A program made the position numbers and the translations under genes. DNA of 32,000 nucleotides, taken from NCBI GenBank assembly GCA_963711835.1, contig CAVQFQ010000023.1, positions 6,238-38,237 on the forward strand, given 5' to 3'. Numbering within the stretch: the stretch's first letter is position 1; every line of letters starts with the position of its first letter. This DNA is from an uncultured delta proteobacterium (lineage in GTDB: Bacteria; Desulfobacterota; RBG-13-43-22). Positions 1 to 23,412 of the stretch are shown here, piece by piece. The notes under the pieces were generated by a model. It had not been told where the DNA came from and did no database searches. It was given only the letters and a program-made list of their open reading frames with translations.

Positions 1-385
1 CGTCAAACTGCCCCAGTCCCTTTTCCTTGCCGATAAACAGGGTATCCAGGGCCGGTATGACCGGCAGGACCAGCTGACGGGCTACGGTTTGAACTCCGAA
101 GGCACAGGTCATGATCAGCAGGGCGTTGGCCTGGCTGATCTGGGGGCTGAATTCCTTCAGGGCCTCTTCGGTCAGGTTGTCACAGGCCACCGGCAAGATC
201 AGGGTTCCGGTCACCATTTTCCCCTTTTTGGAGAGCTTGTCCTTCATCTCCCTGACCTCGGGTTCTCCCCCGGTTCGGCAGAGGGTCACACAGGTTCCGC
301 AGCCGATGATAAAAATCCTGCCCAGGCCCTCTAAAAGCTGATCAATCTCTGCTTCGGTTTTTTGACGTGTAATAGACCGGATCAT
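1..385 (-). CDS. MetV-like Cys-rich redox protein (methylene-THF reductase C-terminal-domain family), N-terminal part only, runs off the window
   Basis: My own translation of the minus strand, not in the ORF track because it is open at the edge. ATG at 383-385 is preceded by AGGAGAG. It reads MIRSITRQKTEAEIDQLLEGLGRIFIIGCGTCVTLCRTGGEPEVREMKDKLSKKGKMVTG...LIMTCAFGVQTV...PALDTLFIGKE. The IIGCGTC...TGGE..V.EMK block resembles the N-terminal part of MetV proteins as I remember them. It lies 9 nt downstream of the NuoF-GltD stop. Confidence 0.4.
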   Translation of the reverse strand, partial: MIRSITRQKTEAEIDQLLEGLGRIFIIGCGTCVTLCRTGGEPEVREMKDKLSKKGKMVTGTLILPVACDNLTEEALKEFSPQISQANALLIMTCAFGVQTVARQLVLPVIPALDTLFIGKEKGLGQFD

Positions 386-394
386 GGCACTCTC

Positions 395-3300
395 CTATTT
401 TTTTTCCAGGTCACAGCGGAGACATCTGCGGGCCTCCTGATGGGCCTGGGATTCCTCTAAGCCTCGTTCGACTTCCCGAAAATCTTTGATGCGCACCCCG
501 GGGTCCTCCAGGGTGATTTTGATCCTGGGCCTGGCCGGGATGGATTCCTCTTCCAGGGCCAGGAGCGACTCTTCCTTCATCTCGGTTTTTTCATCCGGCA
601 GTTGAACCGGCCCCTGCACGCCCTGAAGGAACTGGTCGATGGAGACGGCGGCCCTGCGTCCCGACCCGATAGCCCGGATGACAAAGGTCGGACCGGTGGT
701 AAAGTCCCCGCCGGCAAAGATGCCCGGGATATTGGTGCTGAGGGTATTGTCATTGATCTCCAGGGTTCCCCAGAGGGCCCTTTCCAGTTGGCTGTCCTCG
801 GAGAGGAAAGAGAGGTCCGGGGCCTGACCGATGGAAATGATGACCGTATCGGCCTCCACGGTCCGGGTGATATCCGGATCGAAGGTCGGTTTGAAACGGC
901 CTTCGGAATCAAAAACCGCCAGGCAGCGCCTGAAGGTGATACCGGTGATCTTTCTTTCCTCCTGAAGGATCTGAACCGGGCCCCAGGAAGGATGAATGAT
1001 GATCCCCTCCTCGATGGCCTCGTGAATTTCTTTTTCCCAGGCCGGCATCTCCTGGCGGGCCTCCAGGCAGTAAAGCAGGACCTCCTCCGCCCCCAAGCGC
1101 AAGGCGGTCCGAGCCACATCGATGGCCACGTTGCCGCCTCCGACGACCACGGCCTTGCCCTTCAGTTCAGGGGCCTGGCCGGTCTTGGCCTGGCTTAAGA
1201 ATTGGAGACCGTAATAAAGCCCTTCCAGGTCTTCTTCTTCTCCAGGTACGCCGATGCGCTTGCTGGACTGGGCCCCGGCGGCAATAAAGATGGCGCTATA
1301 GCCTTCCTTTTTCAGGTCATTAACCGTATGCCGGGCATTGATGGGGGAATTGTAGCGGATTTCCACCCCGCAGCTTTCAATGTAGTCGATTTCCTTCTGG
1401 ATAATCTCCCGGGGAAGGCGGAATTCCGGAACCGTAATCCCTAACATCCCTCCGGCAACCGACTGGGCTTCGAACACCGTTACCGGGTAGCCTGATTTGG
1501 CCAGGAAATAAGCACAGGTCAGGCCGGCCGGCCCGGCGCCCACAATGGCCACCTTTTGCCTTTGGGTTTTGCTAAAGGGTTGCCGGGCCGTCTGGAGATG
1601 GTCAAAATACCAATCGGCCGCAAACCGTTTCAGGGATCGGATAGCCACCGGCTCATCCAATTCCCCCCGGCGGCATTTGAATTCGCAGGGATGGATGCAG
1701 ATACGGCCGCAGACCGCCGGAAACGGGTTCTTTTCCCGGATGATCTCTACCGCCTGTTCATACTTGCCCATGGCGATGGCCGCCACATAGTTGGGCACGT
1801 CGATCCCGGCCGGGCAGGTGTGCTGGCAGGCCGAGATGACCATGGCATCGCAGGTAGCGGCCGGGCAGCGCTTTTCCCGGATATGGGCCTCGTATTCGTC
1901 CCGAAAATACTGGATGGTCGTCAGGACCGGGTTGGCGCAGGATTGGCCCAGTCCGCAGAGGGAGGAGGCCTTGACGGCCTGGCCTACAGTCAGAAGCGTC
2001 TCAATATCCCCTTCCCGTCCTTCACCCCGGGTGATCCGGGTCAGGATCTTGAGCATCTGGGTGGTGCCCAGGCGGCAGGGGCTGCATTTGCCGCAGGATT
2101 CATCCTGGGTAAAGGAGAGAAAATAGCGGGCAATATCCACCATGCAGGTATTTTCATCCATGACGATCATGCCCCCGGAACCCATCATGGAGCCCACGCG
2201 GCGCAGGGAGTCATAATCAATAGGCAGATCCAGGAAGCGGGCCGGGATGCATCCGCCCGAAGGTCCCCCCATCTGAACGGCTTTAAATTTCCGGCCTTTG
2301 GGAACTCCGCCGCCGATATCAAAGATGACCTCCCGCAAGGTCGTCCCCATGGGGACTTCCACCAGACCGGTATTATTGATCCGGCCGGTTACGGAAAAAA
2401 TTTTGGTCCCTTTGCTCTTTTCCGTTCCCAGGCCGGCGTACCATTCCCAGCCCTTTAAAATGATGGTCCGGATATTGGCAAAGGTTTCCACGTTGTTGAT
2501 GGAGGTGGGTTGGCCTCTAAGCCCGGCCTGGGCCGGATAGGGCGGCCGGATTCGAGGCATGCCTCGCCGTCCTTCGACCGAGGCAATCAGGGCGGTTTCC
2601 TCTCCGCAGACAAAGGCCCCGGCCCCTTCCTTGATTTGAATAGCGAAGTCAAAGCCGGATCCAAGAATATTTTTTCCCAGAAGCCCCGCTTCCGTAGCCC
2701 GGCCGATGGCAATCTTGAGGTGCTTGGTGGCAATGGGATATTCGGCCCGGACATAGATAATCCCTTCGGCGGCCCCGATGGCGTACCCGGCAATGGCCAT
2801 CCCCTCGATAACGGAATGGGGATTCCCCTCCAGGACGCTGCGGTCCATAAAGGCCCCCGGATCCCCTTCATCGGCGTTACAGATGATGTATTTGGCCTTC
2901 CCGGGATTTTGACGGGCCGTTCTCCATTTGACCCCGGTGGGAAAGCCGGCTCCCCCCCGGCCCCGGAGGCCTGATTTTTCAACGGTCTCGATCACCTCCT
3001 CCGGGGTCATGAAGGCCAGGACCTTGCTCAGGGCCCCGTAGCCCTGGTAGGTAATGTAATCCTCGAGGGAGGTCGGATCGATCCGGCCGTTCTCCCCGAG
3101 AACCAGACGTTTTTGTTTTTGGTAAAAGGGGACTTCATGGCTGTAAATGTAGGGTTTGCCGCTTACCGGATCCTTGTAAAGCAGGCGCCCGATGATATTC
3201 TTTTTCTCCACCGTTTCGGAAACGATCTCCGGGACATCCTCCGGGGTGATTTGCTGATAAAATATCTCCTGGGGGGCAACGACCAGTAAGGGGGCCCGCT

Positions 3301-3517
3301 CACAGAACCCGTGGCAGCCGGTCTTCTTGATGGCCACCTGCCGGCCGAGTTTCCTGGCTTCGATTTCCCGAAGCAGGGCCTCATAGACTTCCCCGCTGCC
3401 GTAAGCGCTGCACCCGGGACCATCACACAGATAGATGGTGGTCTGCTGAGGATCCTGGAGGTCCAGTAAGGACTGATGCCACTGATGTAACTGTTCAAAA
3501 TTTTTAACGCGCTCCAT
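395..3517 (-). CDS. NuoF-like NADH/FMN subunit with an N-terminal thioredoxin-like [2Fe-2S] domain, fused to a GltD/NfnB-like NAD(P)H:FAD oxidoreductase domain
   Basis: N-terminus has CDGPGCSAYG...CHGFCERAP (2Fe-2S). NuoF motifs are GLRGRGGAGFPTGVKW, ICNADEGDPGAFMDR and ESCGKCSPCRLG. Then come ferredoxin-like Cys clusters (CQHTCPAG, CGRICIHPCEFKC) and a GltD-like Rossmann block KVAIVGAGPAGLTCAYFL...GGMLGITVPEFRLP...VVVGGGNVAIDVAR. The tail ends in ARRCLRCD. I prefer the ATG at 3517 (AGAAAGG 7 nt upstream) over the TTG at 3553 used in the track. Confidence 0.85.
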   Translation of the reverse strand: MERVKNFEQLHQWHQSLLDLQDPQQTTIYLCDGPGCSAYGSGEVYEALLREIEARKLGRQVAIKKTGCHGFCERAPLLVVAPQEIFYQQITPEDVPEIVSETVEKKNIIGRLLYKDPVSGKPYIYSHEVPFYQKQKRLVLGENGRIDPTSLEDYITYQGYGALSKVLAFMTPEEVIETVEKSGLRGRGGAGFPTGVKWRTARQNPGKAKYIICNADEGDPGAFMDRSVLEGNPHSVIEGMAIAGYAIGAAEGIIYVRAEYPIATKHLKIAIGRATEAGLLGKNILGSGFDFAIQIKEGAGAFVCGEETALIASVEGRRGMPRIRPPYPAQAGLRGQPTSINNVETFANIRTIILKGWEWYAGLGTEKSKGTKIFSVTGRINNTGLVEVPMGTTLREVIFDIGGGVPKGRKFKAVQMGGPSGGCIPARFLDLPIDYDSLRRVGSMMGSGGMIVMDENTCMVDIARYFLSFTQDESCGKCSPCRLGTTQMLKILTRITRGEGREGDIETLLTVGQAVKASSLCGLGQSCANPVLTTIQYFRDEYEAHIREKRCPAATCDAMVISACQHTCPAGIDVPNYVAAIAMGKYEQAVEIIREKNPFPAVCGRICIHPCEFKCRRGELDEPVAIRSLKRFAADWYFDHLQTARQPFSKTQRQKVAIVGAGPAGLTCAYFLAKSGYPVTVFEAQSVAGGMLGITVPEFRLPREIIQKEIDYIESCGVEIRYNSPINARHTVNDLKKEGYSAIFIAAGAQSSKRIGVPGEEEDLEGLYYGLQFLSQAKTGQAPELKGKAVVVGGGNVAIDVARTALRLGAEEVLLYCLEARQEMPAWEKEIHEAIEEGIIIHPSWGPVQILQEERKITGITFRRCLAVFDSEGRFKPTFDPDITRTVEADTVIISIGQAPDLSFLSEDSQLERALWGTLEINDNTLSTNIPGIFAGGDFTTGPTFVIRAIGSGRRAAVSIDQFLQGVQGPVQLPDEKTEMKEESLLALEEESIPARPRIKITLEDPGVRIKDFREVERGLEESQAHQEARRCLRCDLEKK

Positions 3518-3561
3518 GCTCAGCCTTTCTGATCCGATAGCTTTTTGTTCCAAGCCATCGA

Positions 3562-4017
3562 CTATGAGCGGTATTTGTTAAGAATCGTTTCAATGCGTTT
3601 CGGGGTCATCTTGCCGAAATAGGTTTGATTTACCACCATAACTGGTGATAAGGCGCAGGCCCCCAGTCAGGCCACCGTTTCCAGGGTGAAAGAGTAATCC
3701 GGCGCGGTTTCTCCCTCTTCCAAGTCCAGATCTTTTTGCACCACCCGCAAAACGCCTCGGCCGCCCCGGACGTGGCAGGCTGTTCCACGACAGACCTTGA
3801 CCACGGTTTTTCCCCTGGGATGGGTGTAAAACTGGGAATAAAAGGTGACCACCCCCTGGACTTGACTGGGAGTCACCCCCAAGGCTTCGGCGATTTGAGG
3901 CACCACCTCTTCAGGGAGATAACCAAGGCGCTCCTGAACCTGCTGCAGGAGAGGGATTAAGGCCTCTTTGTTTCTGCCAAAGGTCTGCAAGATGTCCTGG
4001 ATATCTGGGCTGGTCAT
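3562..4017 (-). CDS. NuoE/HoxE-type thioredoxin-like [2Fe-2S] subunit with an in-frame TGA (3667-3669), candidate selenoprotein
   Basis: The track ORF 3667-4017 ends ...CRGTACHVRGG...FTLETVA-TGA. The same frame continues for 34 codons (LGACALSPVMVVNQTYFGKMTPKRIETILNKYRS) to TAG at 3562-3564. The joined protein has the spacing C-x4-C-x35-[TGA]-x3-C, which equals the NuoE cluster-ligand spacing. The start overlaps the upstream gene stop (ATGA at 4014-4017). Confidence 0.7.
3630..3651 (-). promoter_or_regulatory. SECIS-like stem-loop downstream of the in-frame UGA
   Basis: The mRNA reads UGA-CUGGGGGCCUGCGCC-UUAUCACCA-GUUA-UGGUGGUAA. This gives a 9-bp stem (one G-U pair) and a 4-nt loop beginning with GU. 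The loop starts 24 nt after the UGA, inside the roughly 16-37 nt range I recall being used for bacterial SECIS searches. Confidence 0.5.
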
Positions 4018-6665
4018 TCGAACGCTCCTATTTTATGGATTTTCACCGGACAGATCTTATGAAGAGACCCTTTGCTGCTGGGATCCCAAAAGGCCTCCAA
4101 CAGGCCGGGAATCTTTAACTCGGGATAAGGCAGGGGAAGAAAAACAACCCCGGGCAACACCTGGTCTTCAATAAGGGCCGATACCTGCAGGCTGCCCCGC
4201 CGGGAACAAATTTCGACCGGATCCCCGGACCGTATCTCCAACCGTTGGGCATCGTCCAGAGAGAGGGTTAGTTTAGGCGGGGGGGTTACGGACTTCAAAC
4301 GCCGGTCTTTCCAGGTGCGGGTACCGGCCCCCAAATGCAGAACCAGGCTGCCCCAGATAAGCAGGAAAGGATAATCCGGATCCTGGGCCAATCTTTCTAA
4401 TTGTATCTTGGGAATGAGAAAAGGAAACGGTTTGCCTGTCGGCTGGAAGGGCGGGAGGAAAACAGGTCCCTTGGATAACCGGTCTGGATTGATCTGATTA
4501 TAACTCGGGACCAGCCCCTGGATTTCCCTGAAGAGTTCAGCCGGGGCATAGGCAGCCTGAGGGACCCCGAAGGCCTGGAAAAGGGAATGAAAGATTTCCC
4601 CATCGGCTTTGGCTTCTCCCGGGGGAGGAATCGCCTGTTGCAAGGCCTGGACCCGTCGTTCCAGGCTGGTAAAGGTCCCCTCTTTTTCTGCGAAAGCGGC
4701 TGTTGGAAGGACCACCTGGGCCTTTTGGGCCGTTTCGGATAAAAAAAGATCCTGAACGACTAAAAAGTCCAGACGGTCCAAGGCCCCTTCAACCCAATTT
4801 CGATCCGGGTAGGTCCCCAGAGGGTCTTCGCCGGCCAGGTATAATCCCTTCAATTCCCCCTGTTGGGCCGAGGCCATCATTTCCAGGGCCGACAAACCCG
4901 GCCCTGGAGGGACTGGGACACCCCAGGTTTCCTCAAATTTTTTAACGGCCTGAAAGTCGGTCAGGTTATGATAGCCCGGGAGATAATCCGGCAAGACCCC
5001 CATATCCCAGGCCCCCTGGGCATTGCTTTCCTTCAAAATAGGATAAAGGCCGCTCCCGGGTTTTCCCCATTGCCCGGTGAGGAGCATTAAATTCATTAGG
5101 CCCATCACCAGGGCCGTGGCCTGCAATTGCTGGTTCACCCCGGAGCCCAGGACCAGGGCCACCCCCCTGGCTGAAGCAAACCCTTCAGCAGCCCTACGGA
5201 CTTCCTGGGAAGACAAACCGATAGTCTTCCTTAAGGATTTCAGGTCCTGTTTTAGGAAGGACTCCTTCCATTCCAGGAATCCTTCCGTTTGGGAATAAAC
5301 AAACCCCTGGTTCCAGAGGTTCTCACTAAGCAGATGGGCGATCAGGAGTTGGATCAGGGCCAGATCCGAACCCGGCTGAATTTGGAGCCAGAGGTCGGCC
5401 CGGGTGGCCAGCTTGGTCTTCCTGGGATCCACAACCGTCAGCTTAGCCCCTTTCTGGGCTACCGCCCTTTTGACCATATAGCCTAAGACCGGGCTGCTTT
5501 CCGTGGGATTGCCCCCCATGACCCAGATCAAATCGGCCTCCAAAAGCCGGTGGAGCGGGGCCATGGCCCCGGCCTGCCCCCAGACCTTGGCCATCACAGT
5601 CATGATCGGGGCCATTGATAACCGGGATCCGTTGTCCACATGAGGGGTCTTTAGTCCAGCCCGAGCCAGCTTTTGGAAAAGGTAAAGCTCCTCATTAGTT
5701 AAATGAGGACTGGCCAGACAACCGATCCGATCCGATCCCCATTCCTTCTGTATTCGACTGAACCCCTCCTTTACCGTGCTTAGGGCCTCTTCCCAGGAGG
5801 CCTTCTCCAGGGTTCCGTTCCTCCGAATCAGGGGATAGAGCAGGCGATCCGGACTATGGACATAATTAAATCCGAAATGTCCTTTGACACAGAGAACCGG
5901 GCCCTTCTCGCCGTCGTTGGCCGGCGTGACTCGTATAATCCGATCGGAGTGGGTTTCCAGGACCAGGGAACAGCCGCAGCCGCAGTGCGAACAGACCGTT
6001 ACCGTCCGGGTTGGGATGGCCCCCTGGTGAAACAACTGGGTTTCGGTCAGGGCCCCGGTGGGACAGAGGGAGAGGCAGGTCCCGCAAAAAGTACAGGCCG
6101 ACTGCTCCAAGGGGACGTTTTGAAAGGTGGCCGGACGGGCCTTAAAGCCCCGGTTAATATAGTCCAAAACCCCTTCCACCACCAGCTCCTGGTCGCCCCG
6201 GATGCATTTCCCGCAGAGGATGCACTTGCTCATATCCCGCTTAAAGAAAGGATTACTATCATAGGTCGGGAAGTACTGGGGCATGGGATCCAGAAGAATC
6301 GCCCCCAATCCCAGTTCAGCGGCCACGCTTCTGAGCTGGCAGCGGTTCCCCTTGTCGCAAACAATGCAGGATTCAGGATGACTGGCCAACATGAGCCCAA
6401 TGACGGCCCGGCGGCTCTCCAGGACCCGAGGGGAATGGGTCTTAAGTATCATCCCGGGAGCAATGGTCGTTACGCAGGAGGGCAACAGGACACCCCGGCT
6501 CTCTTCTTCCACCAGACAGATCCGGCAGGCCCCGGCCGCCGGAAGATGCGGGTCATGGCAAAGGGTTGGGATAGGGATTCCCAGATCCTGGGCCAACTCC
6601 AGGATAGTCATTCCGGCCTTACCACTTACAGTCTGCTCGTTGATCTGTACGGTTACGCTACTCAC
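4014..6665 (-). CDS. NuoG / formate-dehydrogenase-alpha-like molybdopterin-fold Fe-S subunit lacking the catalytic Sec/Cys
   Basis: N-terminal 2Fe-2S (CHDPHL..GACRICLV..C), a His-ligated cluster (HPESCIVCDKGNRC), two ferredoxin motifs (CILCGKCIRG, CTFCGTCLSLCP), the MopB 4Fe-4S (CSHCGCGCS...LCVKG) and a C-terminal MGD-binding beta-barrel (DDAQRLEIRSGDPVEI). GTG start at 6665 has AAAGGGGAA upstream. The active-site stretch reads VDNGSRLSMAP where FdhH has VD..ARV-U-HGP. Confidence 0.8.
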   Translation of the reverse strand: MSSVTVQINEQTVSGKAGMTILELAQDLGIPIPTLCHDPHLPAAGACRICLVEEESRGVLLPSCVTTIAPGMILKTHSPRVLESRRAVIGLMLASHPESCIVCDKGNRCQLRSVAAELGLGAILLDPMPQYFPTYDSNPFFKRDMSKCILCGKCIRGDQELVVEGVLDYINRGFKARPATFQNVPLEQSACTFCGTCLSLCPTGALTETQLFHQGAIPTRTVTVCSHCGCGCSLVLETHSDRIIRVTPANDGEKGPVLCVKGHFGFNYVHSPDRLLYPLIRRNGTLEKASWEEALSTVKEGFSRIQKEWGSDRIGCLASPHLTNEELYLFQKLARAGLKTPHVDNGSRLSMAPIMTVMAKVWGQAGAMAPLHRLLEADLIWVMGGNPTESSPVLGYMVKRAVAQKGAKLTVVDPRKTKLATRADLWLQIQPGSDLALIQLLIAHLLSENLWNQGFVYSQTEGFLEWKESFLKQDLKSLRKTIGLSSQEVRRAAEGFASARGVALVLGSGVNQQLQATALVMGLMNLMLLTGQWGKPGSGLYPILKESNAQGAWDMGVLPDYLPGYHNLTDFQAVKKFEETWGVPVPPGPGLSALEMMASAQQGELKGLYLAGEDPLGTYPDRNWVEGALDRLDFLVVQDLFLSETAQKAQVVLPTAAFAEKEGTFTSLERRVQALQQAIPPPGEAKADGEIFHSLFQAFGVPQAAYAPAELFREIQGLVPSYNQINPDRLSKGPVFLPPFQPTGKPFPFLIPKIQLERLAQDPDYPFLLIWGSLVLHLGAGTRTWKDRRLKSVTPPPKLTLSLDDAQRLEIRSGDPVEICSRRGSLQVSALIEDQVLPGVVFLPLPYPELKIPGLLEAFWDPSSKGSLHKICPVKIHKIGAFE

Positions 6666-6679
6666 GGCATTCCCCTTTG

Positions 6680-7078
6680 TTAATCGAGTTTGCGATTCCC
6701 GCCGGCCGCCAGCCTTTCCCAGGCGTTTCGGACAGCCAACAGTAATTCTTCGGGACCGAAGGTCTTAACATGGTAGTAATAAATCGGATTTTGACGGATT
6801 CGGGCTTCCAGCTCCGGTGTATTTTCTCTGGCCGTGACAATAATCAGCAAAGAAGGATCCACCCCTTTTAGGATGGATATGGCTTCATAGGCCTTCATTT
6901 CCGGCATCTCCGCCGCCATGATCAAGATTTCGACTTTTTCCTGTTGGACGATCTGGATAGCCTGGATGCTTCTGGCGGCGGTAAAAATCTGGAATCCTTC
7001 TTCTCCCAGGGTCCTTGACCAATGGGAAAGGAATTGGGCATCCGGATCAGCGATCAAAATTGTCCCTGGTTTTTCCAT
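6680..7078 (-). CDS. Single-domain receiver-like protein lacking the phospho-acceptor Asp (pseudo-receiver)
   Basis: MEKPGTILIADPDAQF...VEILIMAAEMPEMKAY...LIIVTARE...YYHVKTF shows the receiver fold pattern with the Thr and Lys positions kept. The usual LLD-I-x-MP acceptor reads IMA-A-E-MP (Ala55, codon 6914-6916). The ATG at 7078 is preferred because the longer track ORF (start 7123) would run through the promoter motif. Confidence 0.65.
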   Translation of the reverse strand: MEKPGTILIADPDAQFLSHWSRTLGEEGFQIFTAARSIQAIQIVQQEKVEILIMAAEMPEMKAYEAISILKGVDPSLLIIVTARENTPELEARIRQNPIYYYHVKTFGPEELLLAVRNAWERLAAGGNRKLD

Positions 7079-7094
7079 GGCAGCCTTCAATAAG

Positions 7095-7110
7095 AGCAAA
7101 GGGCATACCA
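7095..7110 (-). promoter_or_regulatory. sigma54 (-24/-12) type promoter for the redox operon
   Basis: The minus strand reads C-TGGTATG-CCCT-TTGCT. GG and GC have the canonical spacing of the TGGCACG-N4-TTGCW consensus. It sits about 17 nt upstream of the receiver ATG and directly downstream of an NtrC-type activator gene. Confidence 0.5.
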
Positions 7111-7224
7111 GGAGGCGCCTCATCCTTAATGGGTTAATTTTACTGTTGATCAGGTAAATGGAGGGAAAGGCTGGGAGGATACGGCTGTTACAAAATGCCT
7201 CAGGTGTGTAGTTTCACCTCACCT

Positions 7225-8595
7225 TTACAAGCGGTATTTTTTGATCTTTTCCAGGAGGGTCTTGCGATTGATGCCCAGCAGTTCAGCGGCCTGGGAACGA
7301 TTGCCCTGGGTCTTTTTTAAAACCTGTCCGATGTACTCTTTTTCCAACTCCTGCAGGGTGGCCACCTTTTCCTCGGATAGGGGAAGGTCTTGATGCTTCC
7401 GTTGGATAAACCAGGGGATGTCCTCCGGCCTGAGGATCGGCCCATCCTCCAATATGACGATGCGCTCGATTAAATGCTTCAGCTCCCGGACGTTGCCCGG
7501 CCAGTCATATTCCATCAGCAGTTCCAGGGCCTCCGGGGAAATCCCCTGGATCGTTTTTTTATTTTTTTTGCTGAATTGGCGGAGAAAATAATCGACCAGC
7601 AGGGGGATGTCTTCCCTTCTTTCCTTAAGGGACGGCAAGTGGATGGGAACCACGCTCAGGCGGTAGAAGAGATCCTCACGGAAGAGTCCCTGCCGGATGG
7701 CCTGGCGAAGATCCTGGTTGGTGGAGGCGATGATGCGGATATCGACCTTGATTTTCTTCTCACTGCCGACCTTGATGAATTCCCTCTCCTGGATAACCCG
7801 CAATAATTTGGCCTGGATGTTCAAGCTGAGGTTGGAGATTTCGTCAAAGAAAAAGGTCCCTCCGTTGGCCAGTTCCAAAAAGCCGTGTTTGGTCTGAATG
7901 GCCCCGGTGAAGGAACCCTTGACATGGCCGAAGAGCTCGCTCTCCATCAAGGTCTCCACCAGAGCCGAGCAGTCTACAGCCACGAACTCTTTGTCCCCCC
8001 GGAGGCTGTGTTGCTGGATGGCCCGGGCCACCAGTTCCTTGCCGGTGCCGCTGAAACCATAAATCAGGACCGTGCTGTCGGTGGGGGCCACTTTCTCAAT
8101 GGTCTGAAAGATCTTTTGCATGGCCCGGCTCTTGCCGATCAGCGGGTCGAGACCGCCTTTCAGTTCCATCTGCTTTCTCAAGAGATGGTTCTCCCAGAGG
8201 AGCTGCCTGTGTTCCAGGGCTTTGCGGATGGCCAGCTTCAACTGGTCCGGGCTGAACGGCTTGGTCAGGTAATCAAAGGCCCCCTGCTTAATGGATTGAA
8301 CGGCTGTTCCAATTTCAGGGTAGCCGGTAATCATGATGATTTCAAGCGCACCGCGGACTTCCGATTCGGTAATAGTTCTCAAAACCTCCAGGCCGTCCAT
8401 ATCCGGCATCTTGATATCCAGAAGCACCAGGCTGTAGGCGTTCTGGGCTACTTCTTCCAGGGCCTCCCGGCCGGTGGCCACGGCCTTGACCAGAAAGCCT
8501 TCTTTGATCAAGACCCGACTGATGCCTTCCCGGATGACCGCCTCATCATCCACCACCAGGATTCGGATATCGGGACTCTTCCTAAGCTCCTGCAT
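7225..8595 (-). CDS. sigma54-dependent response regulator (NtrC/Fis family: receiver + AAA+ + HTH)
   Basis: ILVVDDE...LLDIKMPDMDG (receiver), GFSGTGKELVARAI (Walker A), ESELFGHVKGSFTGA (GAFTGA-type loop), and a C-terminal Fis-type HTH NRSQAAELLGINRKTL. Confidence 0.9.
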   Translation of the reverse strand: MQELRKSPDIRILVVDDEAVIREGISRVLIKEGFLVKAVATGREALEEVAQNAYSLVLLDIKMPDMDGLEVLRTITESEVRGALEIIMITGYPEIGTAVQSIKQGAFDYLTKPFSPDQLKLAIRKALEHRQLLWENHLLRKQMELKGGLDPLIGKSRAMQKIFQTIEKVAPTDSTVLIYGFSGTGKELVARAIQQHSLRGDKEFVAVDCSALVETLMESELFGHVKGSFTGAIQTKHGFLELANGGTFFFDEISNLSLNIQAKLLRVIQEREFIKVGSEKKIKVDIRIIASTNQDLRQAIRQGLFREDLFYRLSVVPIHLPSLKERREDIPLLVDYFLRQFSKKNKKTIQGISPEALELLMEYDWPGNVRELKHLIERIVILEDGPILRPEDIPWFIQRKHQDLPLSEEKVATLQELEKEYIGQVLKKTQGNRSQAAELLGINRKTLLEKIKKYRL

Positions 8596-8601
8596 GCGGA
8601 C

Positions 8602-9084
8602 TTATTCCATTCCCGGCACTTCGAAAGCCTGCTCAATGGCCTTAACCGCTGTGGATAAATCGGAGGCCCTGATGACGCAGGAACAAGTGGAGATTGAGGT
8701 ACTGATGGCCATGATATTGATGTTGCGCAAATTCAGGGCCGCGAAAAAAGAGCCGGCAATCCCGGGACGCTCCCGGAAATGGGGGCCGAAGATCGAAACC
8801 ACCGCAATATCCGGATTGGATGTGAGATTTAAAAATTGGATTTGGGGTTTCAGTTCATTTAAAACCGCCAGGGCCTCATCGGCGGCCGAACGGGAGATAC
8901 AGAGGATGACCTGGCTTTCTCCGCGCTGGCTCAAGCAGTGCATGATGAACTCCACGTTGAGGCCCCGACGACCCAGGGATTGAAAAATCAAACCGGCGAC
9001 ACCCGGCCGGTCGGGGATGTTTTCAATACTGACCAGGCTTAAATCGGTGTGCTCGATGATTCCACCCAGTTTGATCTTTTTCAT
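8602..9084 (-). CDS. Tandem ACT-domain protein (aspartate-kinase regulatory-domain-like)
   Basis: 160 aa with two repeats of the ACT-type pattern (IPDRPGVAGLIFQSLGRRGLNVEFI; FRERPGIAGSFFAALNLRNINIMAI). No catalytic domain is present. Confidence 0.6.
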   Translation of the reverse strand: MKKIKLGGIIEHTDLSLVSIENIPDRPGVAGLIFQSLGRRGLNVEFIMHCLSQRGESQVILCISRSAADEALAVLNELKPQIQFLNLTSNPDIAVVSIFGPHFRERPGIAGSFFAALNLRNINIMAISTSISTCSCVIRASDLSTAVKAIEQAFEVPGME

Positions 9085-9309
9085 TTTTTTCCTTTTGGCG
9101 CTTGTTCCAGCCGCTATCCGCTACCAGCTCAACACTCTGAACTCTTAATATCGTTCAAAGGTTTTGGCACTGGTGTAGCATGGCCTGACTTGGGGACCGG
9201 GATCAGGCTGCCGGCGTTTTGGCGGACAATCCTTCAAATCGAGACCCCCGGTCCCTTTCCATCGGGTATCAGAAACATAATACCACAACCTTTGGACGAT
9301 ACCGAACTC

Positions 9310-9756
9310 TTAGATTTGCCCCATCAGGAGCCGGCGGGTGCGCTGCAGGCGTTTGGCAATGATGATGCACAAATTCCGCATCACTTTAAAGCCCAGCGCC
9401 GGATGTTGCGTTAGGACTTGGTTGAACGCTTTTCGCTCGAACGATAAGACCCGGGTTTTTTCCAGGCAGATGGCCGTGGCGCTAAGCTGATACGGTTCAA
9501 CCAGGGCTGACCAGCCGAAGGGGCTGCCTTTTTTTTTAATTATTTCAAAGGTGACCTCCAGACCTTCGGACAGGGCTGTTTTCACGGCCACTACCCCTCG
9601 ATCCAGCAGATAGACCCTTTCGCCCAGGGTATCCTGATAAAAGATGATCGACCCGGTAGGAAAGGTTTCGGCCTCGGCCAGTGGAGTTAAGAGTTCCAGA
9701 TCGTGGGAGGATATCTTGTTAAACAATTCACTCTGTTTGACTGGGCTAAGAACCAT
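9310..9756 (-). CDS. Cyclic-nucleotide-binding domain protein (no DNA-binding domain)
   Basis: 148 aa with a Crp/cNMP beta-roll pattern (FYQDTLGERVYLLDRGVVAV...GSPFGWSAL...ATAICLEKTRVLSFERKAF). The start overlaps the upstream kinase stop by 11 nt. Confidence 0.7.
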   Translation of the reverse strand: MVLSPVKQSELFNKISSHDLELLTPLAEAETFPTGSIIFYQDTLGERVYLLDRGVVAVKTALSEGLEVTFEIIKKKGSPFGWSALVEPYQLSATAICLEKTRVLSFERKAFNQVLTQHPALGFKVMRNLCIIIAKRLQRTRRLLMGQI

Positions 9757-11248
9757 GGCTATCCCTTTCTGTTGGAATGGATGGAATCAGGACCTTAAAG
9801 CAGGTGCCCCGGTCCGGATGACTTTCCACCTGAATGTACCCCAAATGGGCCTCGACCAGACGCTTGACAATAGGCAATCCCAAACCGGTTCCGATGATCT
9901 GCCGGGTTTTCTCATTTTTTACCCGGAAAAAGCGATCAAAGATCCTCGGAAGATCCTGGGGGGATATGCCTATGCCGGTGTCTGAAACCTGGATGAGGAG
10001 GTATTCCGCTTCAGGGCTTAGGGAAACCTGAATAGACCCTCCTTCCGGCGTATATTTGACGGCGTTATGAACCAGGTTGGTCAAAATTTCCTCCATGGCC
10101 TGGGGATCGGCATGGACCAAGGGTAGGGGCGAACCGGCTTTTAGGGACAGCTTCTGATTTCTGGCCTCTGCCTGCGGTTTGAACAGGTCAAGGGTCCTTT
10201 CAACCAGGGGCAGAAGCTGGAGCGGCTCTTTTTGTTGAAACTGAATCCCGGCCTCGATCTGGGAAATATCCAAAAGATTGCGGATGAGTTCCAGGAGACC
10301 GGACACCCTCTCCTTGGATCGACCCAGGAGTTCTTTCTGCTTGGGGCTGACTTCCCCGGCCAGTCCCTCCAGGATAACCGAGATCTGCTGCGAAATAGCG
10401 GACAAAGGGGCCCTGAGCTCATGGGAAACCATGGCCACAAACTCGCTTTTCATCTGATCCAGGGCCTTCAGGTAGCTGATATCCTGGAGCACGGTCACCG
10501 ACCCCAGCATCTCTTCGGAATCTCCCCGGACCGCGGCGGTATGGGCCCGCAAATAAACCGGATCGTTTTGTCCTAAAGAAAATTCCTGGGAAATCACCGA
10601 AGGGCTTTCTCCCTGAGTTAAGACCTGGCCGATGGCCTCGGAAAGGAGTTTTAATTCAGAAGAGTCGGGCAAGGGCTTACCCAGGAGATCCAGGGGCGGC
10701 AACCTGAGTAAATGGATCGAAGCCGGATTATGGAGGACGATGTTTTGGTCCCGGTCGGTTACCAGCACCCCGCTGGCCATGCAGTGAATGATGGTCTGAA
10801 TCCGTCCTTTCTCCGTGGCGATGTCTTTAAGGCTTTTTGCCTGTTCTTGGCGCAACCGCTCGGCTTCGATCTGGAGGGCCCTTTTCTCTAAGGCTCGACG
10901 GACAACCAAACGGAGCTGATCCGGTGTGAAGGGCTTGGTAATAATGTCATAGGCCCCGCGCTTCATGGCCTCCACAGCCAGTTCCACGGTGGCATGTCCG
11001 GTGATGATGAGTACGATTTGATCGGGGGAAAGAGCCTGAACCTTTTCCAGAACATCCATGCCGTTCATGACGGGCATCATGATGTCCAGCAGGACCAGAT
11101 CAAACGGTTTTTTCTGTAAGAGTTCCCAGGCCTGGGCCCCATTTTCTACCAAGGTGATTTGATATTTTTCCCTGGAAAGGATGCGCTGGATCCCGTCTCG
11201 AATTACTTTTTCGTCATCAGCCAAAAGTAAGGAATAGTCTGAACCCAT
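9746..11248 (-). CDS. Hybrid receiver-PAS-histidine kinase
   Basis: N-terminal receiver (LLADDE...LLDIMMPVMNGMD...KPF), a coiled linker, a PAS-like segment, HisKA (FVAMVSHELRAPL) and HATPase_c (NLVHNAVKYTPEGG...DTGIGI...GTGLGLPIVK). Confidence 0.9.
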   Translation of the reverse strand: MGSDYSLLLADDEKVIRDGIQRILSREKYQITLVENGAQAWELLQKKPFDLVLLDIMMPVMNGMDVLEKVQALSPDQIVLIITGHATVELAVEAMKRGAYDIITKPFTPDQLRLVVRRALEKRALQIEAERLRQEQAKSLKDIATEKGRIQTIIHCMASGVLVTDRDQNIVLHNPASIHLLRLPPLDLLGKPLPDSSELKLLSEAIGQVLTQGESPSVISQEFSLGQNDPVYLRAHTAAVRGDSEEMLGSVTVLQDISYLKALDQMKSEFVAMVSHELRAPLSAISQQISVILEGLAGEVSPKQKELLGRSKERVSGLLELIRNLLDISQIEAGIQFQQKEPLQLLPLVERTLDLFKPQAEARNQKLSLKAGSPLPLVHADPQAMEEILTNLVHNAVKYTPEGGSIQVSLSPEAEYLLIQVSDTGIGISPQDLPRIFDRFFRVKNEKTRQIIGTGLGLPIVKRLVEAHLGYIQVESHPDRGTCFKVLIPSIPTERDSHGS

Positions 11249-11322
11249 TTATGAAAAAACCTCTTTTTATTCCATTGATCTCATTTTTTTAGGACCAGCG
11301 GTTATGGGCTTTGGCGGATAAA

Positions 11323-13284
11323 CTAACTGATCCCCAGCAGGGCTGACTCCTTGGCCTCTTTCTGGGAGGAAGGACCTTCCAGCGGCAGGTGGATGAGGAA
11401 GGTAGTTCCTTGACCTACCTGGCTTTGGACTTCAATGGTTCCCCCGTGTTCTTGGATGATCCCGTAGACCGTACTCAACCCCAACCCGGTTCCTTTCCCG
11501 ACCTCTTTGGTGGTAAAGAAGGGGTCGAAGATCCGGGAAAGGATTTCAGGAGGGATTCCAGCCCCGGTATCGCTGAGTTCCAAGGCGATTTTATCGTCGC
11601 CGGGAAGAGTGTAGGTGCGCAAGGTCAAGGTTCCGTTACCGCCCATGGCATCAGCGGCGTTGGTCATTAAATTGATAATGACCTGATTCAACTGCCCGGG
11701 ATCGGTGATGATTTCAGGCAGCCCGGGATCCAGCTCCTCCACCACGTGGATATTATGGAACAGGGCTTGTTTTCCCAAGAGGCTGACGGTCTGCTTTACC
11801 GATTGATTGGGGTTCCAGGGAACCCAGCGATGCTGGGTCTGGCGGCTGAATTCGAGCAGCTCCTTGACGATCTCCTTGCAGCGCATGGTTTGTTCAACAA
11901 TCTGAGCCAGGTCGTCCCACCGGGAATCTTCCCGGCCTGTTTCTTCCAATAGCATATTGGCGTAGATGAGGATTCCACCCAGGGGGTTATTGATTTCATG
12001 GGCCACTCCGGCCGCCAATTTACCCAGCGAGGCCATCTTCTCCGAATGCAGCAGCTTGAGATGGGTTTCTTCCAGCTCCTTTTGCAAACGGATTCGTTCT
12101 CGAAGATCCGTAAAAATCCCCACACTGGCAATTTCCTGCCCGTTTTCATCATAGATTAAGGCTGCGGAAAGATTGGCGGGAAAGGATTCCCCCAGCTTGG
12201 TAACCAGGGTGACCTGGGTGCCGCCCAATTTTCCCGGGGGGCCATAATCACTGCTGCGAAGCCGGCGCATGATATCTTTGGCCAGGCCCTCCGGGTAAAT
12301 CTGGGTGATATGGAATTGTTCCAAAGCCACTTCGGCAGTGTAACCCAGCAAGCGTTCCGCCCCCTGATTAAAGACGATTATTTTCCCTTTCATATCAGCG
12401 GCGATAATGCCGTCCACGGAACTGATAATGATGTTTTTCAGAAAATTATTGGTTTTTCGGAGTTCGTTTTCAAAACGGATCCGTTCAGAAAGATCCCGCA
12501 GGTAAGCATAGGTCTTGAGTTGCCCTTCAATCGCGGCCAGGGCCAGACAAATCTCCACTTCCCGGGGGATACGGGAGGCACTGATAATTTTAAACTGGGT
12601 GCAGACTTTACGGTTTTCATTGGATTTCAGGCGCATCTGGGTCGGCAGAGCCAAAAGAAATTCCCGATCTTCTTCGGAGAGTAAGGACCGGAAATCCAAG
12701 CCGATCAGTTGGTCCTTGGAGAAACCGGTAATATCGGAAGCCAGGGAATTGGCGAATTCGATCCGGTAATTCTGGTCAAAAACCAGGATGCCGTCGTTGC
12801 CCATTTCAATTATTTTCTGAAGGGCCTGGTGAACGTCCAGCAACCGCCTTTCCATGGACTTATAGGCCGAGATATCCCGGAGCAGGGCATAAATCTGATT
12901 TCGTTCAAAAAGGCTGGGGCTGGAAAACAGGGTCAGTTCCGCATCCTTGATTTCCTGCTGGGGAGTCAGCAGTTTAACCTCGGAAGAGACCTTGAGTTTC
13001 GATTTCAGAATCGGGGGCTGGAGCATGTCCCGGAGGATAGGCTGGTCCTGAGGAGTGAAAAGAGAAAAAATATCCTGGTGAATCAAGTTGGGCAGGGAGG
13101 TGCCGGTAATGAGGGCCGCCTGTTCATTGGCCCAATTGATTTTCATGTCGGAGCCTAAAATCACCAGCCCCTCTCCGCCGATCTGGCCCATGGTCTGGAG
13201 GGTTTCCTCTAGATAGACCAGGCGCTGCTCAGGGGACAGCGAGGGCTGGTTCACCAGATGAGAGGGACTGCCAGCTTCGTTCAT
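11323..13284 (-). CDS. Multi-PAS sensor histidine kinase
   Basis: Several PAS-like repeats, an H-box ([12 protein letters not shown]) and HATPase_c ([10 protein letters not shown]...DTGAGIPPE...[13 protein letters not shown]). The ATG at 13284 is preferred (GGGAG 8 nt upstream). The track starts 3 nt earlier at TTG. Confidence 0.9.
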
Positions 13285-13667
13285 CAATAGAACTCCCTAC
13301 CACACCGAGAAGGTCTAAGAAGAGTTGCCAGATAAACCGGAAGACAAAAAGAGAGCCTATCTTATCAGAAAAATAGCCCCAGTCAATTCAATACCGGAAG
13401 GTGACCGCCTTTTTAACGGGAGGATCATAAACCCGGGGCTCCTATTTTTTACCAGCCGACCTGGTCTTTTTTCGACATGGCCGCCGCCAATCGGTCCTGG
13501 ATATCAATGATCGTTAAAGATGGAAACCCGTTGTCCCGGCCTGATAAGCCCAATGGCTTCCCTGGCCTTGGATCGCTTCCCCATGTAATTATCGGCTGAA
13601 CCCCTGACGCCCATGGAATTCTCTTGAGGAAGCGGTCCGGCGCTTCGGAAAAGGATCGGCTTTGGGA

Positions 13668-20320: not shown

Positions 20321-22165
20321 ATGACCGACACCAAATTGAAGTTTCCCGATCCGCATCAAATACCCACCATCCCCGGCACCGAAGGTTGGGAACGTATGTA
20401 TCCTTATCATTATCAATTTACCACCGACGACCCGGAGCGCACGGCCTACGAAAAAAGCATGTTCTGGTTTAATGACGGGCTTCACTATCCGGAACCGATG
20501 TACCCTTTTGACATCATCTGGGATGAAGCCTGGTTTCTGGCCCTTTCTCAGAACAACACCCGGGTTTTTATCGTTCCCCCGGCCCTCGGGGTGGATCACC
20601 GTATTATCAACGGCAACATCTACATCACCCCGGTTCCGGTGGCCGATCCGAGTACGATCCCGGCGCGGGTCGAACTCTTCATGAAACGGGCCGGGTATTA
20701 TTATCAGAACTGGGATCGCCTCCATGATCAATGGGAAAAGAAGATGCGGGAGGTGATTGAAAAGTTAGCGGCCATCGAAATAGCCGATCTCCCGGAAATG
20801 GAAGAAGAATCAGTGGTTACGGAGGGTTTGGGGATCAGCAGCGGTTACAAGCTTCTGAAAAAATACGACGATCTGATCGATCTGGGCATCCTGGCCTGGC
20901 AGTATCATTTTGAATTTCTAAACCTGGGCTACGCCGCTTACGTGGTTTTCCTGGATTTCTGCCAGAAGGCCTTTCCGGATATTCCGATTCAACGGGTCAC
21001 CCAAATGGTCTCCGGTGTGGATGTCATCATGTACCAGCCGGATGAAGAGTTAAAGAAACTGGCCAAGCAGGCCGTAGAATTGAATTTAACCGAACTCATC
21101 CTGCAGCCTCTAAAGATCGATCAGCTCTGGCCCAAACTGCAGGCTACCGAGGCCGGCTTAAAATGGACCGCCGCCTTTGATAAGGCCAAATACCCCTGGT
21201 TCTACATCTCCACCGGGACCGGCTGGTACCACCACGACTCCTGCTGGCTGGATGACCTCAATGTCCCTCTGGATTCCATCCGCATTTATATCGGCACCCT
21301 GAAAAAGGGCGGAACCATTGAACGGCCCCTGGCTGATGTGCGGGAAGAACGGGACAAGATCACCACCGAGTACCGCAAGCTCCTGAAAACCGATGAAGAC
21401 CGGGCCACCTTTGATCAGCTCCTGGGAACCTCCAAGACCGTTTTTCCTTATGTGGAAAACCACCTCTTTTATGTCGAGCACTGGTTCCACAGCATCTTCT
21501 GGAACAAGATGCGCCAGGTCTCCCAGATCATGGTGAATCACGGTTTTATTAAAGACATTGAAGATATCTGGTATCTCTCCCGCAGCGAAATCAAAGAGGC
21601 CCTCTGGGATCTGGTAACCGGCTGGGCCACGGGCACCAAGGCTCGGGGACCCCTCCATTGGCCCAAGGAAATCGCCTGGCGGAAAGGGGTCATGGAAAAA
21701 TTCCGGCAATGGACCCCTCCCCCGGCTGTTGGGACGGCCCCGGAAGTCATTAACGAACCCTTTACCATTGTCCTCTGGGGGGTCACCTCGGAGAGCATGG
21801 CCAACTGGGCCAAGGCCAAAGAAGTGGGTGACTTGAGCACCCTGACCGAGCTGAAAGGCTTCCCCGGATCTCCGGGATCAGTTGAAGGTCCGGCCCGGGT
21901 CTGCCGCAGCGTCAAGGAAATCGATCAGCTCCAGGAAGGGGAAATCCTGGTGGCCCCCACCACTTCGCCCAGTTGGGCCCCGGCCTTCCAGAAGATCAAG
22001 GCCTGCATCACCGACGTGGGCGGCGTCATGTGCCACGCGGCCATCGTCTGCCGTGAATACGGCGTGCCGGCCATTGTCGGAACCGGGGTCGGCACCCAGG
22101 CCATCAAGACCGGGGATTACCTCGTCGTGGATGGCGGTACCGGTTTGATTAAAATCAGGAGGTAG
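20321..22165 (+). CDS. PEP-utilising-enzyme family protein with C-terminal phosphohistidine swivel domain, phenylphosphate-synthase PpsA-like (large subunit)
   Basis: 614 aa (about 70 kDa). The C-terminus reads GSPGSVEGPARV...GEILVAPTTSPSWAPAF..IKACITDVGGVMCHAAIVCREYGVPAIVGTG (mobile His domain). The N-terminal roughly 500 aa are not ATP-grasp. RBS GAAGGAG. Confidence 0.65.
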   Translation: MTDTKLKFPDPHQIPTIPGTEGWERMYPYHYQFTTDDPERTAYEKSMFWFNDGLHYPEPMYPFDIIWDEAWFLALSQNNTRVFIVPPALGVDHRIINGNIYITPVPVADPSTIPARVELFMKRAGYYYQNWDRLHDQWEKKMREVIEKLAAIEIADLPEMEEESVVTEGLGISSGYKLLKKYDDLIDLGILAWQYHFEFLNLGYAAYVVFLDFCQKAFPDIPIQRVTQMVSGVDVIMYQPDEELKKLAKQAVELNLTELILQPLKIDQLWPKLQATEAGLKWTAAFDKAKYPWFYISTGTGWYHHDSCWLDDLNVPLDSIRIYIGTLKKGGTIERPLADVREERDKITTEYRKLLKTDEDRATFDQLLGTSKTVFPYVENHLFYVEHWFHSIFWNKMRQVSQIMVNHGFIKDIEDIWYLSRSEIKEALWDLVTGWATGTKARGPLHWPKEIAWRKGVMEKFRQWTPPPAVGTAPEVINEPFTIVLWGVTSESMANWAKAKEVGDLSTLTELKGFPGSPGSVEGPARVCRSVKEIDQLQEGEILVAPTTSPSWAPAFQKIKACITDVGGVMCHAAIVCREYGVPAIVGTGVGTQAIKTGDYLVVDGGTGLIKIRR

Positions 22166-22168
22166 TTC

Positions 22169-23254
22169 ATGTCCGACGAAGGCAGACTGCCTTACATCTT
22201 CAATTTGAATGAATGTGATCTTACTTCTCTGCCTTATGTGGGCGGGAAGAATGCCAGCCTGGGTGAAATGATCCGGGCTGGCCTTCCCGTGCCCCCCGGG
22301 TTTGCCGTAACCACCGAGGCCTATAGAAAATTTATAAGTCAAAATAGACTTAGAAAACCCATTAACGACCTGATGCGGGACTTGAATCCCCGGGATATTG
22401 AACAGGTGAACGCCACCAGCCAATCCATCCGGCAGATGATCGAAGAGGCCCCTATCTCGGAAGGCATTGCCGTGGTCATTGAGGATGCCTACAACCGACT
22501 CTGGAGGTCCCTGCAGATGCCCCTGGTGCCGGTAGCGGTTCGGTCCAGCGCTACGGCCGAGGACCTCCCCGGGGCCAGTTTCGCCGGCCAGCAGGAAACC
22601 TACCTGTTTGTCCGTACCGCCGATGAGGTCATCGACAAGGTCAGAAAATGCTGGTCCTCCCTGTTTACCCCCCGGGCCATCACCTACCGGATCCGGCAAG
22701 GCTTCGACCATGAAAAGGTCCTGATCAGTGTGGGCGTGCAAAAGATGGTCAATTCCTTTACCGCCGGAGTCATGTTTACCCTGAATCCGGCCACCGGGGA
22801 TGTTTCGGTCATCGTCATCGATGCCAACTGGGGTGTGGGCGAGTCGGTGGTCAGCGGGGTGGTGACCCCGGACCAGTTTGTGGTGGATAAGATTAATCTG
22901 GAGATCCTCAAAAAGACCATTTCCCGAAAAGACGTCTATTTCACCACCAGTCCCGAACGGAACAAACTGGTGGAGATGGAAGTCGAAGAGGAACGTAAGG
23001 AAGTCCAATCGGTCATCGACAAGGACATTAAGGAACTGGCCCGGTTCGGCAAGTTGATCGAGGCCCATTACGGGAAGGCCATGGACATCGAATGGGCTAT
23101 TGATAAGGACCTGCCGGCCGGCGGCAATGTGCGCATCCTGCAGTCCCGCCCGGAAACGGTCTGGAGCCAGAAAAAGGTGGAACCGGTGGTTCAACCCAAG
23201 GCCTCGGCCCTGGAACATATCGTAGCCGGGATGCTGCAGGGAAAGAAGTTCTAA
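22169..23254 (+). CDS. PEP synthase/PPDK N-terminal ATP-grasp (nucleotide-binding) protein, phenylphosphate-synthase PpsB-like
   Basis: 361 aa (about 40 kDa). VGGKNASLGEMIRAGLPVPPGFAVTTEAY, VAVRSSATAEDLPGASFAGQQETYL and MDIEWAI...LQSRPET. It starts 3 nt after the preceding stop. Confidence 0.7.
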   Translation: MSDEGRLPYIFNLNECDLTSLPYVGGKNASLGEMIRAGLPVPPGFAVTTEAYRKFISQNRLRKPINDLMRDLNPRDIEQVNATSQSIRQMIEEAPISEGIAVVIEDAYNRLWRSLQMPLVPVAVRSSATAEDLPGASFAGQQETYLFVRTADEVIDKVRKCWSSLFTPRAITYRIRQGFDHEKVLISVGVQKMVNSFTAGVMFTLNPATGDVSVIVIDANWGVGESVVSGVVTPDQFVVDKINLEILKKTISRKDVYFTTSPERNKLVEMEVEEERKEVQSVIDKDIKELARFGKLIEAHYGKAMDIEWAIDKDLPAGGNVRILQSRPETVWSQKKVEPVVQPKASALEHIVAGMLQGKKF

Positions 23255-23268
23255 CAGGATAAAAAAGC

Positions 23269-23363: not shown

Positions 23364-23412
23364 AACCATCATAATCCAAAACAATTAAACCCAAGGAGGA
23401 AACAGCAGAATT

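Follow-up and report, generated by a model that had tools for sequence, protein, structure and literature searches.

A candidate selenocysteine at a [2Fe-2S] ligand position in a NuoE/HydC-type subunit encoded with MetV

We analyzed a 32,000-nucleotide stretch of DNA from an uncultured delta proteobacterium of the Desulfobacterota (positions 6,238 to 38,237 of contig CAVQFQ010000023.1, assembly GCA_963711835.1; hereafter the window), in which a reverse-strand gene for a NuoE/HydC-type [2Fe-2S] subunit carries an in-frame TGA exactly where the third cysteine ligand of the cluster is expected. From sequence comparison, this 151-residue subunit very probably has its codon 117, a UGA, decoded as selenocysteine (Sec). 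A first-pass annotation of the window had proposed this reading, and it is now strongly supported by the alternation of Cys and TGA at the site, by selection on the frame beyond the TGA, by conservation of the TGA, and by a hairpin that follows it. We also think it likely, though with somewhat less confidence, that a natural Sec ligand on the flavin-proximal [2Fe-2S] cluster is a clade-wide trait of Desulfobacca-like and related anaerobes, ancestral in them and occasionally reverted to Cys, and that this is the first selenoprotein of the NuoEF/Bfu module, belonging to a MetVF-coupled complex.

Results

An in-frame UGA at the third ligand position

The gene begins at 4017-4015 with an ATG that shares bases with the upstream gene's stop codon, a TGA (joint sequence ATGA), and it runs to the internal TGA at 3669-3667, just before which the encoded residues are ...FTLETVA. 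Past the TGA the same frame remains open for 34 codons (LGACALSPVMVVNQTYFGKMTPKRIETILNKYRS) as far as a TAG at 3564-3562, and an example of a peptide from this tail is MTPKRIETILNK. The ATG of the downstream gene lies at 3517, 44 nt past the TAG, and has a GAAAGG ribosome-binding site. When the two parts are joined, the ligand spacing of the protein reads C76-x4-C81-x35-[TGA117]-x3-C121. The first-pass annotation had described a TGA at the ligand-3 position, an open 34-codon tail, C-x4-C-x35-C-x3-C spacing, and intact neighbors that are coupled to the gene, and all of these are present in the sequence. There are three Cys codons in the gene besides the TGA, and thus no spare cysteine to stand in for ligand 3. 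The coordinates of these features are collected in Table 1.

The joined protein, with C placed at codon 117, matches Pfam family PF01257 over profile positions 1-145 of 145 (E = 5.7e-52), and because this match runs from end to end, the tail beyond the TGA belongs to the domain. The NCBIfam NuoE model NF005722 gives 158.7 bits against a cutoff of 141. The best match among solved chains is 7t2r_C (NiFe-HydC; E = 1.7e-45), and 8a6t_C (HydC) and 9n5u_C (NfnC) are likewise matched end to end. A Cys occupies the codon-117 column in all of these aligned chains, and it occupies the ligand-3 column in 113 of the 114 full-length homologs that match the motif. The predicted fold and ligand positions of the NuoE-type subunit are fixed by homology to the solved chains (E = 1e-45).

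Table 1. Features of the NuoE-type gene and of the operon around it (window coordinates)
Feature	Position	Strand	Basis or remark
NuoE/HydC-type thioredoxin-like [2Fe-2S] subunit gene, complete	3562..4017	-	151 codons including UGA117, plus TAG stop
In-frame UGA, codon 117, proposed selenocysteine	3667..3669	-	column of third [2Fe-2S] Cys ligand
34-codon C-terminal part of the domain beyond the UGA, with Cys121	3565..3666	-	translated only if the UGA is decoded
Cys76 codon, ligand 1	3790..3792	-	C-x4-C motif aligned to solved HydC chains
Cys81 codon, ligand 2	3775..3777	-	translation and solved-chain alignment
Cys121 codon, ligand 4, beyond the UGA	3655..3657	-	translation and solved-chain alignment
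Candidate bacterial selenocysteine insertion sequence (SECIS) hairpin	3630..3651	-	9-bp stem UUAUCACCA/UGGUGGUAA, apical loop GUUA
NuoG/FdhA-like subunit, 883 aa; 2Fe-2S, 4Fe-4S, and molybdopterin-type domains	4014..6665	-	Pfam
Fusion of NuoF-like and GltD/NfnB-like FAD/NAD(P)H domains, 1040 aa	395..3517	-	Pfam, NCBIfam
Start of MetV-like (DUF5981) gene	2..385	-	translation

Conservation of the TGA within and beyond the species

The TGA and an identical tail occur in nine further loci of the same species (L001, L004-L010, and L014), which come from different samples and were assembled independently in ENA, JGI, and Logan by different pipelines. A base-by-base comparison of eight of the nine loci with the window gave 4-18 substitutions per locus. 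The 102 nt past the TGA hold one change among these loci, a synonymous TGC>TGT at Cys121, whereas 4-5 changes fall within the first 16 nt past the TAG. This jump in divergence past the TAG, set against the single synonymous change in the tail, indicates that constraint stops at the TAG and not at the TGA. The first-pass annotation had allowed for an assembly error in place of a true TGA, but the independent ENA, JGI, and Logan assemblies, which differ from one another by synonymous changes, agree on the codon. The 116-residue product as currently called clusters at 90% identity with others of its length, eight distinct sequences in all, drawn from NCBI, ENA, JGI, and Logan.

For other lineages, we scanned JGI metagenome contigs with a degenerate DNA pattern for E-x-V-x-TGA-L-G-A-C-A-x-x-P. 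Seven matches were returned, two of them by chance and five of them genuine NuoE genes with a TGA and an in-frame tail; these are L011, L012, and L013 (three distinct sequences), L014 from the window's own species, and L016. The TGA-bearing sequences found by the scan are ~66-73% identical to the window protein. Two more lineages, L028/L029 (P0208) and L030 (P0210), were checked at the level of DNA and have the TGA plus the in-frame tail, bringing the DNA-verified TGA lineages to seven, with identities as low as ~67%. Searching with a profile of the truncated N-terminal parts gave 17 clusters at 90% identity, with 55 members of 111-116 residues, and every one of these clusters (P0196-P0211 and P0003) finishes in ...LETVA.

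One database protein, P0005, also returned by the profile search, has W at the codon-117 site, and it comes from a 925-bp contig (JGI 3300075153). This W is most simply explained by a gene caller that applied genetic code 4 to a TGA on so short a contig. A 52-residue query with W at the site returned only 12 short fragments, all of them containing Cys. A scan of the genome collection with the NuoE protein alone returned only two distant paralogs, in one metagenome-assembled genome (MAG). Two distant NuoE-like copies, L002 and L003, lie ~12 kb apart on CAWAEI010000016.1 in a delta-proteobacterial MAG; the L003 copy has internal stops and a scrambled C-terminal half and is likely a frameshifted or decaying duplicate.

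Selection on the tail

Between TGA lineages, the ratio of nonsynonymous to synonymous divergence (dN/dS) is 0.03-0.32 for the 31 codons after the TGA, at a synonymous divergence (dS) of 0.35-1.4, and it is 0.05-0.18 for the 90 codons before the TGA. Synonymous divergence between most of these lineages is near saturation. These comparisons indicate that the tail after the UGA is translated and is under protein-coding purifying selection. Since the downstream frame is under selection over such divergence, the TGA is not a true end of translation, and a pseudogene or a functional truncation is ruled out. The arrangement that the first-pass annotation had named as a counterexample, a truncated NuoE followed by a separate small open reading frame (ORF), does not fit a tail that is kept in frame with a dN/dS of ~0.1. 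Independent translation of the tail was also considered and rejected, as no start codon precedes Cys121 and the first in-frame ATG is codon 127.

Cysteine orthologs and the history of the site

The first-pass annotation had suggested that Cys and TGA might alternate at this column in related genomes, and same-operon orthologs do show TGT or TGA at the exact position. The nearest full-length homologs (P0001, P0002, and P0004-P0011, which include Syntrophales MAGs) have TGT at the codon-117 position, and the same-operon orthologs L018-L027 have TGT or TGC there. The gene order FdhA-like > NuoE > NuoF-GltD is shared by the Cys loci L020, L021, and L024, where the context is available, and L020 and L021 run on into MetV > MetF.

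In a neighbor-joining tree, all TGA forms together with P0001 and P0002 make up one clade, and its sister is a Cys clade of the Syntrophales type. The Cys-bearing P0002 sits inside the TGA-bearing P0210 and P0211. The simplest history for this tree is a single gain of Sec from Cys and two or more later reversions, a history that is tentative because the bootstrap value of the Sec clade on 116 residues is 32/100.

A SECIS-like hairpin after the UGA

The 9-bp stem with a GUUA loop that the first-pass annotation had described as SECIS-like is present; it begins 15 nt past the UGA, and the distance from the UGA to the loop is 24 nt. Folded alone, the hairpin has an energy of -10.9 kcal/mol (z = -4.4), and none of 200 shuffled sequences is equally stable, while in a 73-nt context z is only -1.1. 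The published consensus for bacterial SECIS elements has 3-9 nt in the apical loop, the first two of which include a G (usually as G[G/U]), an upper stem of 4-16 bp, a UGA-loop distance of 16-37 nt, and a minimum free energy of -7.5 kcal/mol or lower (PMC13188914). The window hairpin agrees with this consensus on four of four points (PMC13188914), and its occurrence tracks that of the TGA.

Six distinct TGA sequences form every pair of a 7-bp core of the stem, and three of the core pairs vary, solely between A-U and G-U. A 4-nt GUNN loop is found in five of the seven TGA lineages. The hairpins of the other TGA lineages have 6-7 bp and energies of -7.4 to -9.1 kcal/mol, so that some are borderline with respect to the consensus. 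Cys orthologs have 4-6 of the 7 core pairs.

Codon choice within the stem follows the same division. The Ser codon in the hairpin is TCA in 7/7 TGA lineages and TCC in 3/3 Ser-bearing Cys orthologs, counts that are not independent trials since the TGA lineages are related (7/7 vs 0/3), and the close pair L030 (TGA, TCA) and L019 (TGT, TCC) shows the same split. The stem is made of rare codons, TTA-TCA-CCA...GTA; in 14 genes of the window, TCA accounts for 5% of Ser codons, CCA for 3% of Pro codons, TTA for 7% of Leu codons, and GTA for 10% of Val codons. When synonymous codons for the same peptide were sampled, with the codon usage of the window's own genes applied to all lineages, the 7-bp core arose in 0.5-1.7% of trials.

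A second small hairpin, GGGGC-CUGY-GCCUU (3652-3663, reverse strand), directly separates the UGA from the SECIS-like stem, and it is kept in six aligned TGA sequences. This second hairpin may be a by-product of coding, as it overlaps the invariant LGAC codons and a similar sequence is present in Cys orthologs.

The genetic code

The genetic code is standard, and TGA is still a stop in the neighboring genes. Fourteen window genes end in TAA (7), TAG (4), and TGA (3), and in L013 the NuoE gene itself terminates at a TGA, 33 codons past the internal TGA. We scanned the window, L004, L011, L012, and L021 for frames interrupted by TGA, and coherent protein on both sides of the codon was found only in the NuoE gene. 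The other interrupted-frame matches were rejected as off-frame noise or, in L004, as a frameshift. ARAGORN found no tRNA-Sec in the window and 12 loci.

Evidence against Sec and alternative explanations

Several observations weigh against decoding of UGA117 as Sec or against the hairpin as its signal. The changes in the helix are one-sided (A-U to G-U), and there is no double compensatory pair. One TGA lineage, L028, has 6/7 core pairs and a 6-nt loop, CGUGAU. A 5-bp core is not confined to TGA forms: some Cys orthologs have it too, since it is encoded in part by the conserved peptide [S/A]PVMV. Rfam gave no family for the hairpin, whether the gathering threshold was applied or E values up to 10 were allowed; the sole permissive match, to a long noncoding RNA family (E = 2.6), was rejected as spurious. 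Since the sequences of bacterial SECIS elements vary so widely, the Rfam result does not weigh against one here. The bootstrap value of the Sec clade is weak, as given above. No selA, selB, selD, or tRNA-Sec lies within the window or any fetched locus.

Under one alternative, non-Sec readthrough, a near-cognate or suppressor tRNA, perhaps aided by the hairpin, inserts Trp, Cys, or Gly and a full-length protein results. The comparative data prove that the UGA is decoded and do not identify the residue, and the available sequence (the window and fetched loci) yielded no Sec machinery, but the metal ligand here is a strictly conserved Cys (113/114 homologs), and the site bears the classic signature of a Sec/Cys pair. 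The hairpin also fits the SelB-type SECIS consensus, TGA is a stop in the neighboring genes and at the end of the L013 gene, and the cluster could not be ligated by Trp or Gly. We therefore regard readthrough with another residue as unlikely. Less likely still is a truncated gene, whose 116-residue N-terminal fragment is functional while the tail is untranslated or decaying. The NCBI, JGI, and ENA annotations do call proteins of 111-116 residues, but such a product would retain two of the four ligands and would be without the last quarter of PF01257, the tail is in frame in all TGA lineages with a dN/dS of ~0.1 at a dS of ~1, and sequence constraint extends to the TAG.

A reassigned code (4 or 25), under which TGA is a sense codon and the site is simply Trp or Gly, would account for the W of P0005. 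We consider it highly improbable, given that the other long ORFs of the window contain no in-frame TGA and the NuoE gene alone has a TGA-interrupted frame, that 3/14 genes, including the one immediately upstream, stop at TGA, and that the L013 NuoE gene does so as well. That a TGC or TGT was misread as TGA during sequencing or assembly is less probable again, close to negligible, and nothing was found in its favor: >10 assemblies made independently, from separate samples and by several pipelines, have the TGA, as do the seven diverged lineages.

Operon and surrounding genes

The NuoE gene lies in a conserved operon, NuoG-like > NuoE > NuoF-GltD > MetV > MetF (window 2-6665, reverse strand), that is seen in Desulfobacca-like and Syntrophales MAGs. 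MetF, a methylenetetrahydrofolate reductase, comes next after MetV and falls just beyond the window; it is seen in the gene tables of L004, L020, L021, and L028. The NuoF-like part of the fusion protein has a thioredoxin-like 2Fe-2S domain at its N-terminus together with an FMN/NADH site and a 4Fe-4S cluster, with Complex1_51K, NADH_4Fe-4S, and SLBB domains. Aligned with Rhodobacter capsulatus FdsA, the NuoG/FdhA-like subunit reads SRLSMAP at ARVCHSP, with Ser-Met in place of Cys-His. With no Mo-ligating Cys/Sec and no catalytic His, this upstream subunit is probably not a formate dehydrogenase. It resembles the NuoG-like part of StnC. The operon may encode an uncharacterized type of methylene-tetrahydrofolate reductase complex. 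Desulfobacca sp. is the annotation of one protein that clusters with a window protein at 90% identity; this weak taxonomic link would fit an acetate-oxidizing organism with the Wood-Ljungdahl pathway.

Upstream of the operon (window 6680-13287, reverse strand) is a regulatory block of response regulators, a sigma-54 activator, an ACT-domain protein, a cyclic nucleotide monophosphate-binding protein, and two PAS histidine kinases. Synteny of the block extends to the TGA lineages L011 and L028, where its position relative to the operon is different. One of the PAS histidine kinases is a single 654-residue ORF in the window (11323-13287), and on the 83.9-kb sister-strain contig L004 (733-2695) it is split into 463 and 187 residues, by either a frameshift or an assembly error. 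On the forward strand, window 20321-24819 holds phosphoenolpyruvate-utilizing and pyruvate-phosphate-dikinase-like genes followed by a UbiD-family protein; cluster-mates of the latter bear the name phenylphosphate carboxylase beta subunit, and this points to a gene cluster for anaerobic phenol carboxylation.

Discussion

Comparison with known systems

The subunit shares with HydC, NuoE, NDUFV2, FdsG, StnA, and NfnC (PF01257) the full-length domain, the C-x4-C-x35-C-x3-C spacing, and an adjacent gene for a NuoF-like FMN subunit, but all solved and characterized members have four Cys, whereas here a UGA stands for ligand 3. In its closest solved relative, NiFe-HydABCSL, the [2Fe-2S] cluster C1 of HydC takes the low-potential electron from the bifurcating FMN on a mobile domain (PMC8880783). 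Complex I NuoE, which carries cluster N1a, has the homologous domain and ligand motif; unlike complex I, however, the gene here has no nuoA-N context or membrane subunits around it, and its neighbors are the NuoG/FdhA-like, NuoF-GltD, and MetVF genes and regulators. By its gene content, the NuoE/NuoF-GltD set is predicted to be a soluble module and not complex I.

The Sporomusa-type Nfn (StnABC) is a complex of NuoE-like, NuoF-like, and GltD/NuoG-like subunits that is encoded beside metVF (PMC7483475). Like StnABC, the operon combines NuoE, NuoF, a GltD-like domain, and a molybdopterin-type NuoG-like domain that lacks formate dehydrogenase features, and it is associated with MetV and MetF. The two differ in their fusions: here GltD extends NuoF at its C-terminus and the NuoG-like part has a gene of its own, whereas in StnC GltD is N-terminal to the NuoG-like part. 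They differ too in gene order and in the UGA of the NuoE-like subunit, and the version described here is known from genes alone.

Sec in Fe-S proteins has been predicted before, in the Csac_0668 family, a CopZ/BFD-like 2Fe-2S protein, HgcB, an Fe-S cluster domain protein, and MvhD/VhuD (Table 1 of PMC13188914). Those cases resemble ours in having Sec for Cys in a cluster-binding motif and in being predicted through Sec/Cys homology and a SECIS element, but they belong to unrelated folds and families, none of them comes from a NuoEF module, and direct ligation of a cluster by Sec is a prediction there. The 'NADH:ubiquinone oxidoreductase subunit E' of the Global Ocean Sampling survey is alike in name alone: it is NqrE (PF02508/COG2209), a membrane subunit of the Na+-translocating NADH:quinone oxidoreductase with a TxxU motif, and is unrelated to PF01257.

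A review of May 2026 gives in its Table 1 what it terms the most comprehensive inventory to date, with 119 prokaryotic selenoprotein families and subfamilies, including those annotated in GenBank (PMC13188914). There is no PF01257, NuoE, HydC, or HoxE entry among the 119, and the 'NADH:ubiquinone oxidoreductase subunit E' listed there is again NqrE (PMC13188914), in keeping with the novelty that the first-pass annotation had suspected, and our search of the full-text literature found no report of a Sec-containing NuoE, HydC, HndA, HoxE, or FdsG. Thus, Sec at an Fe-S ligand position is already known in kind by prediction, and the PF01257 family is new to it.

Proposed mechanism and significance

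We propose that the hairpin recruits SelB with Sec-tRNA(Sec), and that Sec117 would then provide a selenolate ligand to the [2Fe-2S] cluster beside Cys76, Cys81, and Cys121. Within a soluble complex of NuoG-like, NuoE, and NuoF-GltD proteins that is encoded with MetV and MetF, the NuoE subunit is expected to dock on the NuoF-like subunit, which contains FMN, and the cluster would adjoin the flavin, as judged from homology with the HydABC and Stn/NfnABC enzymes. Exchange of Se for S in the ligand would tune the potential or the robustness of the cluster. In overall role, the complex of this Desulfobacca-like organism likely links NAD(P)H, and possibly ferredoxin, to the Wood-Ljungdahl pathway at its methylene-/methyl-tetrahydrofolate step.

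If true, this would be a new selenoprotein family inside the NuoE/NuoF flavin-plus-[2Fe-2S] module, which is common to complex I, NAD-linked hydrogenases and formate dehydrogenases, and the bifurcating HydABC/Nfn enzymes and is among the most studied electron-transfer units in biology. The role and potential of its cluster (N1a in complex I and C1 in HydABC) are still being studied (PMC8880783). There is also a systematic error in gene calling, by which at least 17 database clusters are mis-annotated as truncations of 111-116 residues, cut off at residue 115/116, plus one protein with a spurious Trp. The occurrence of natural Sec and Cys orthologs within one operon type would permit a direct comparison of Se and S ligation, for which 77Se would be a spectroscopic handle. 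More broadly, the finding points to an uncharacterized MetVF-associated redox complex in sulfate reducers and syntrophs that have the Wood-Ljungdahl pathway.

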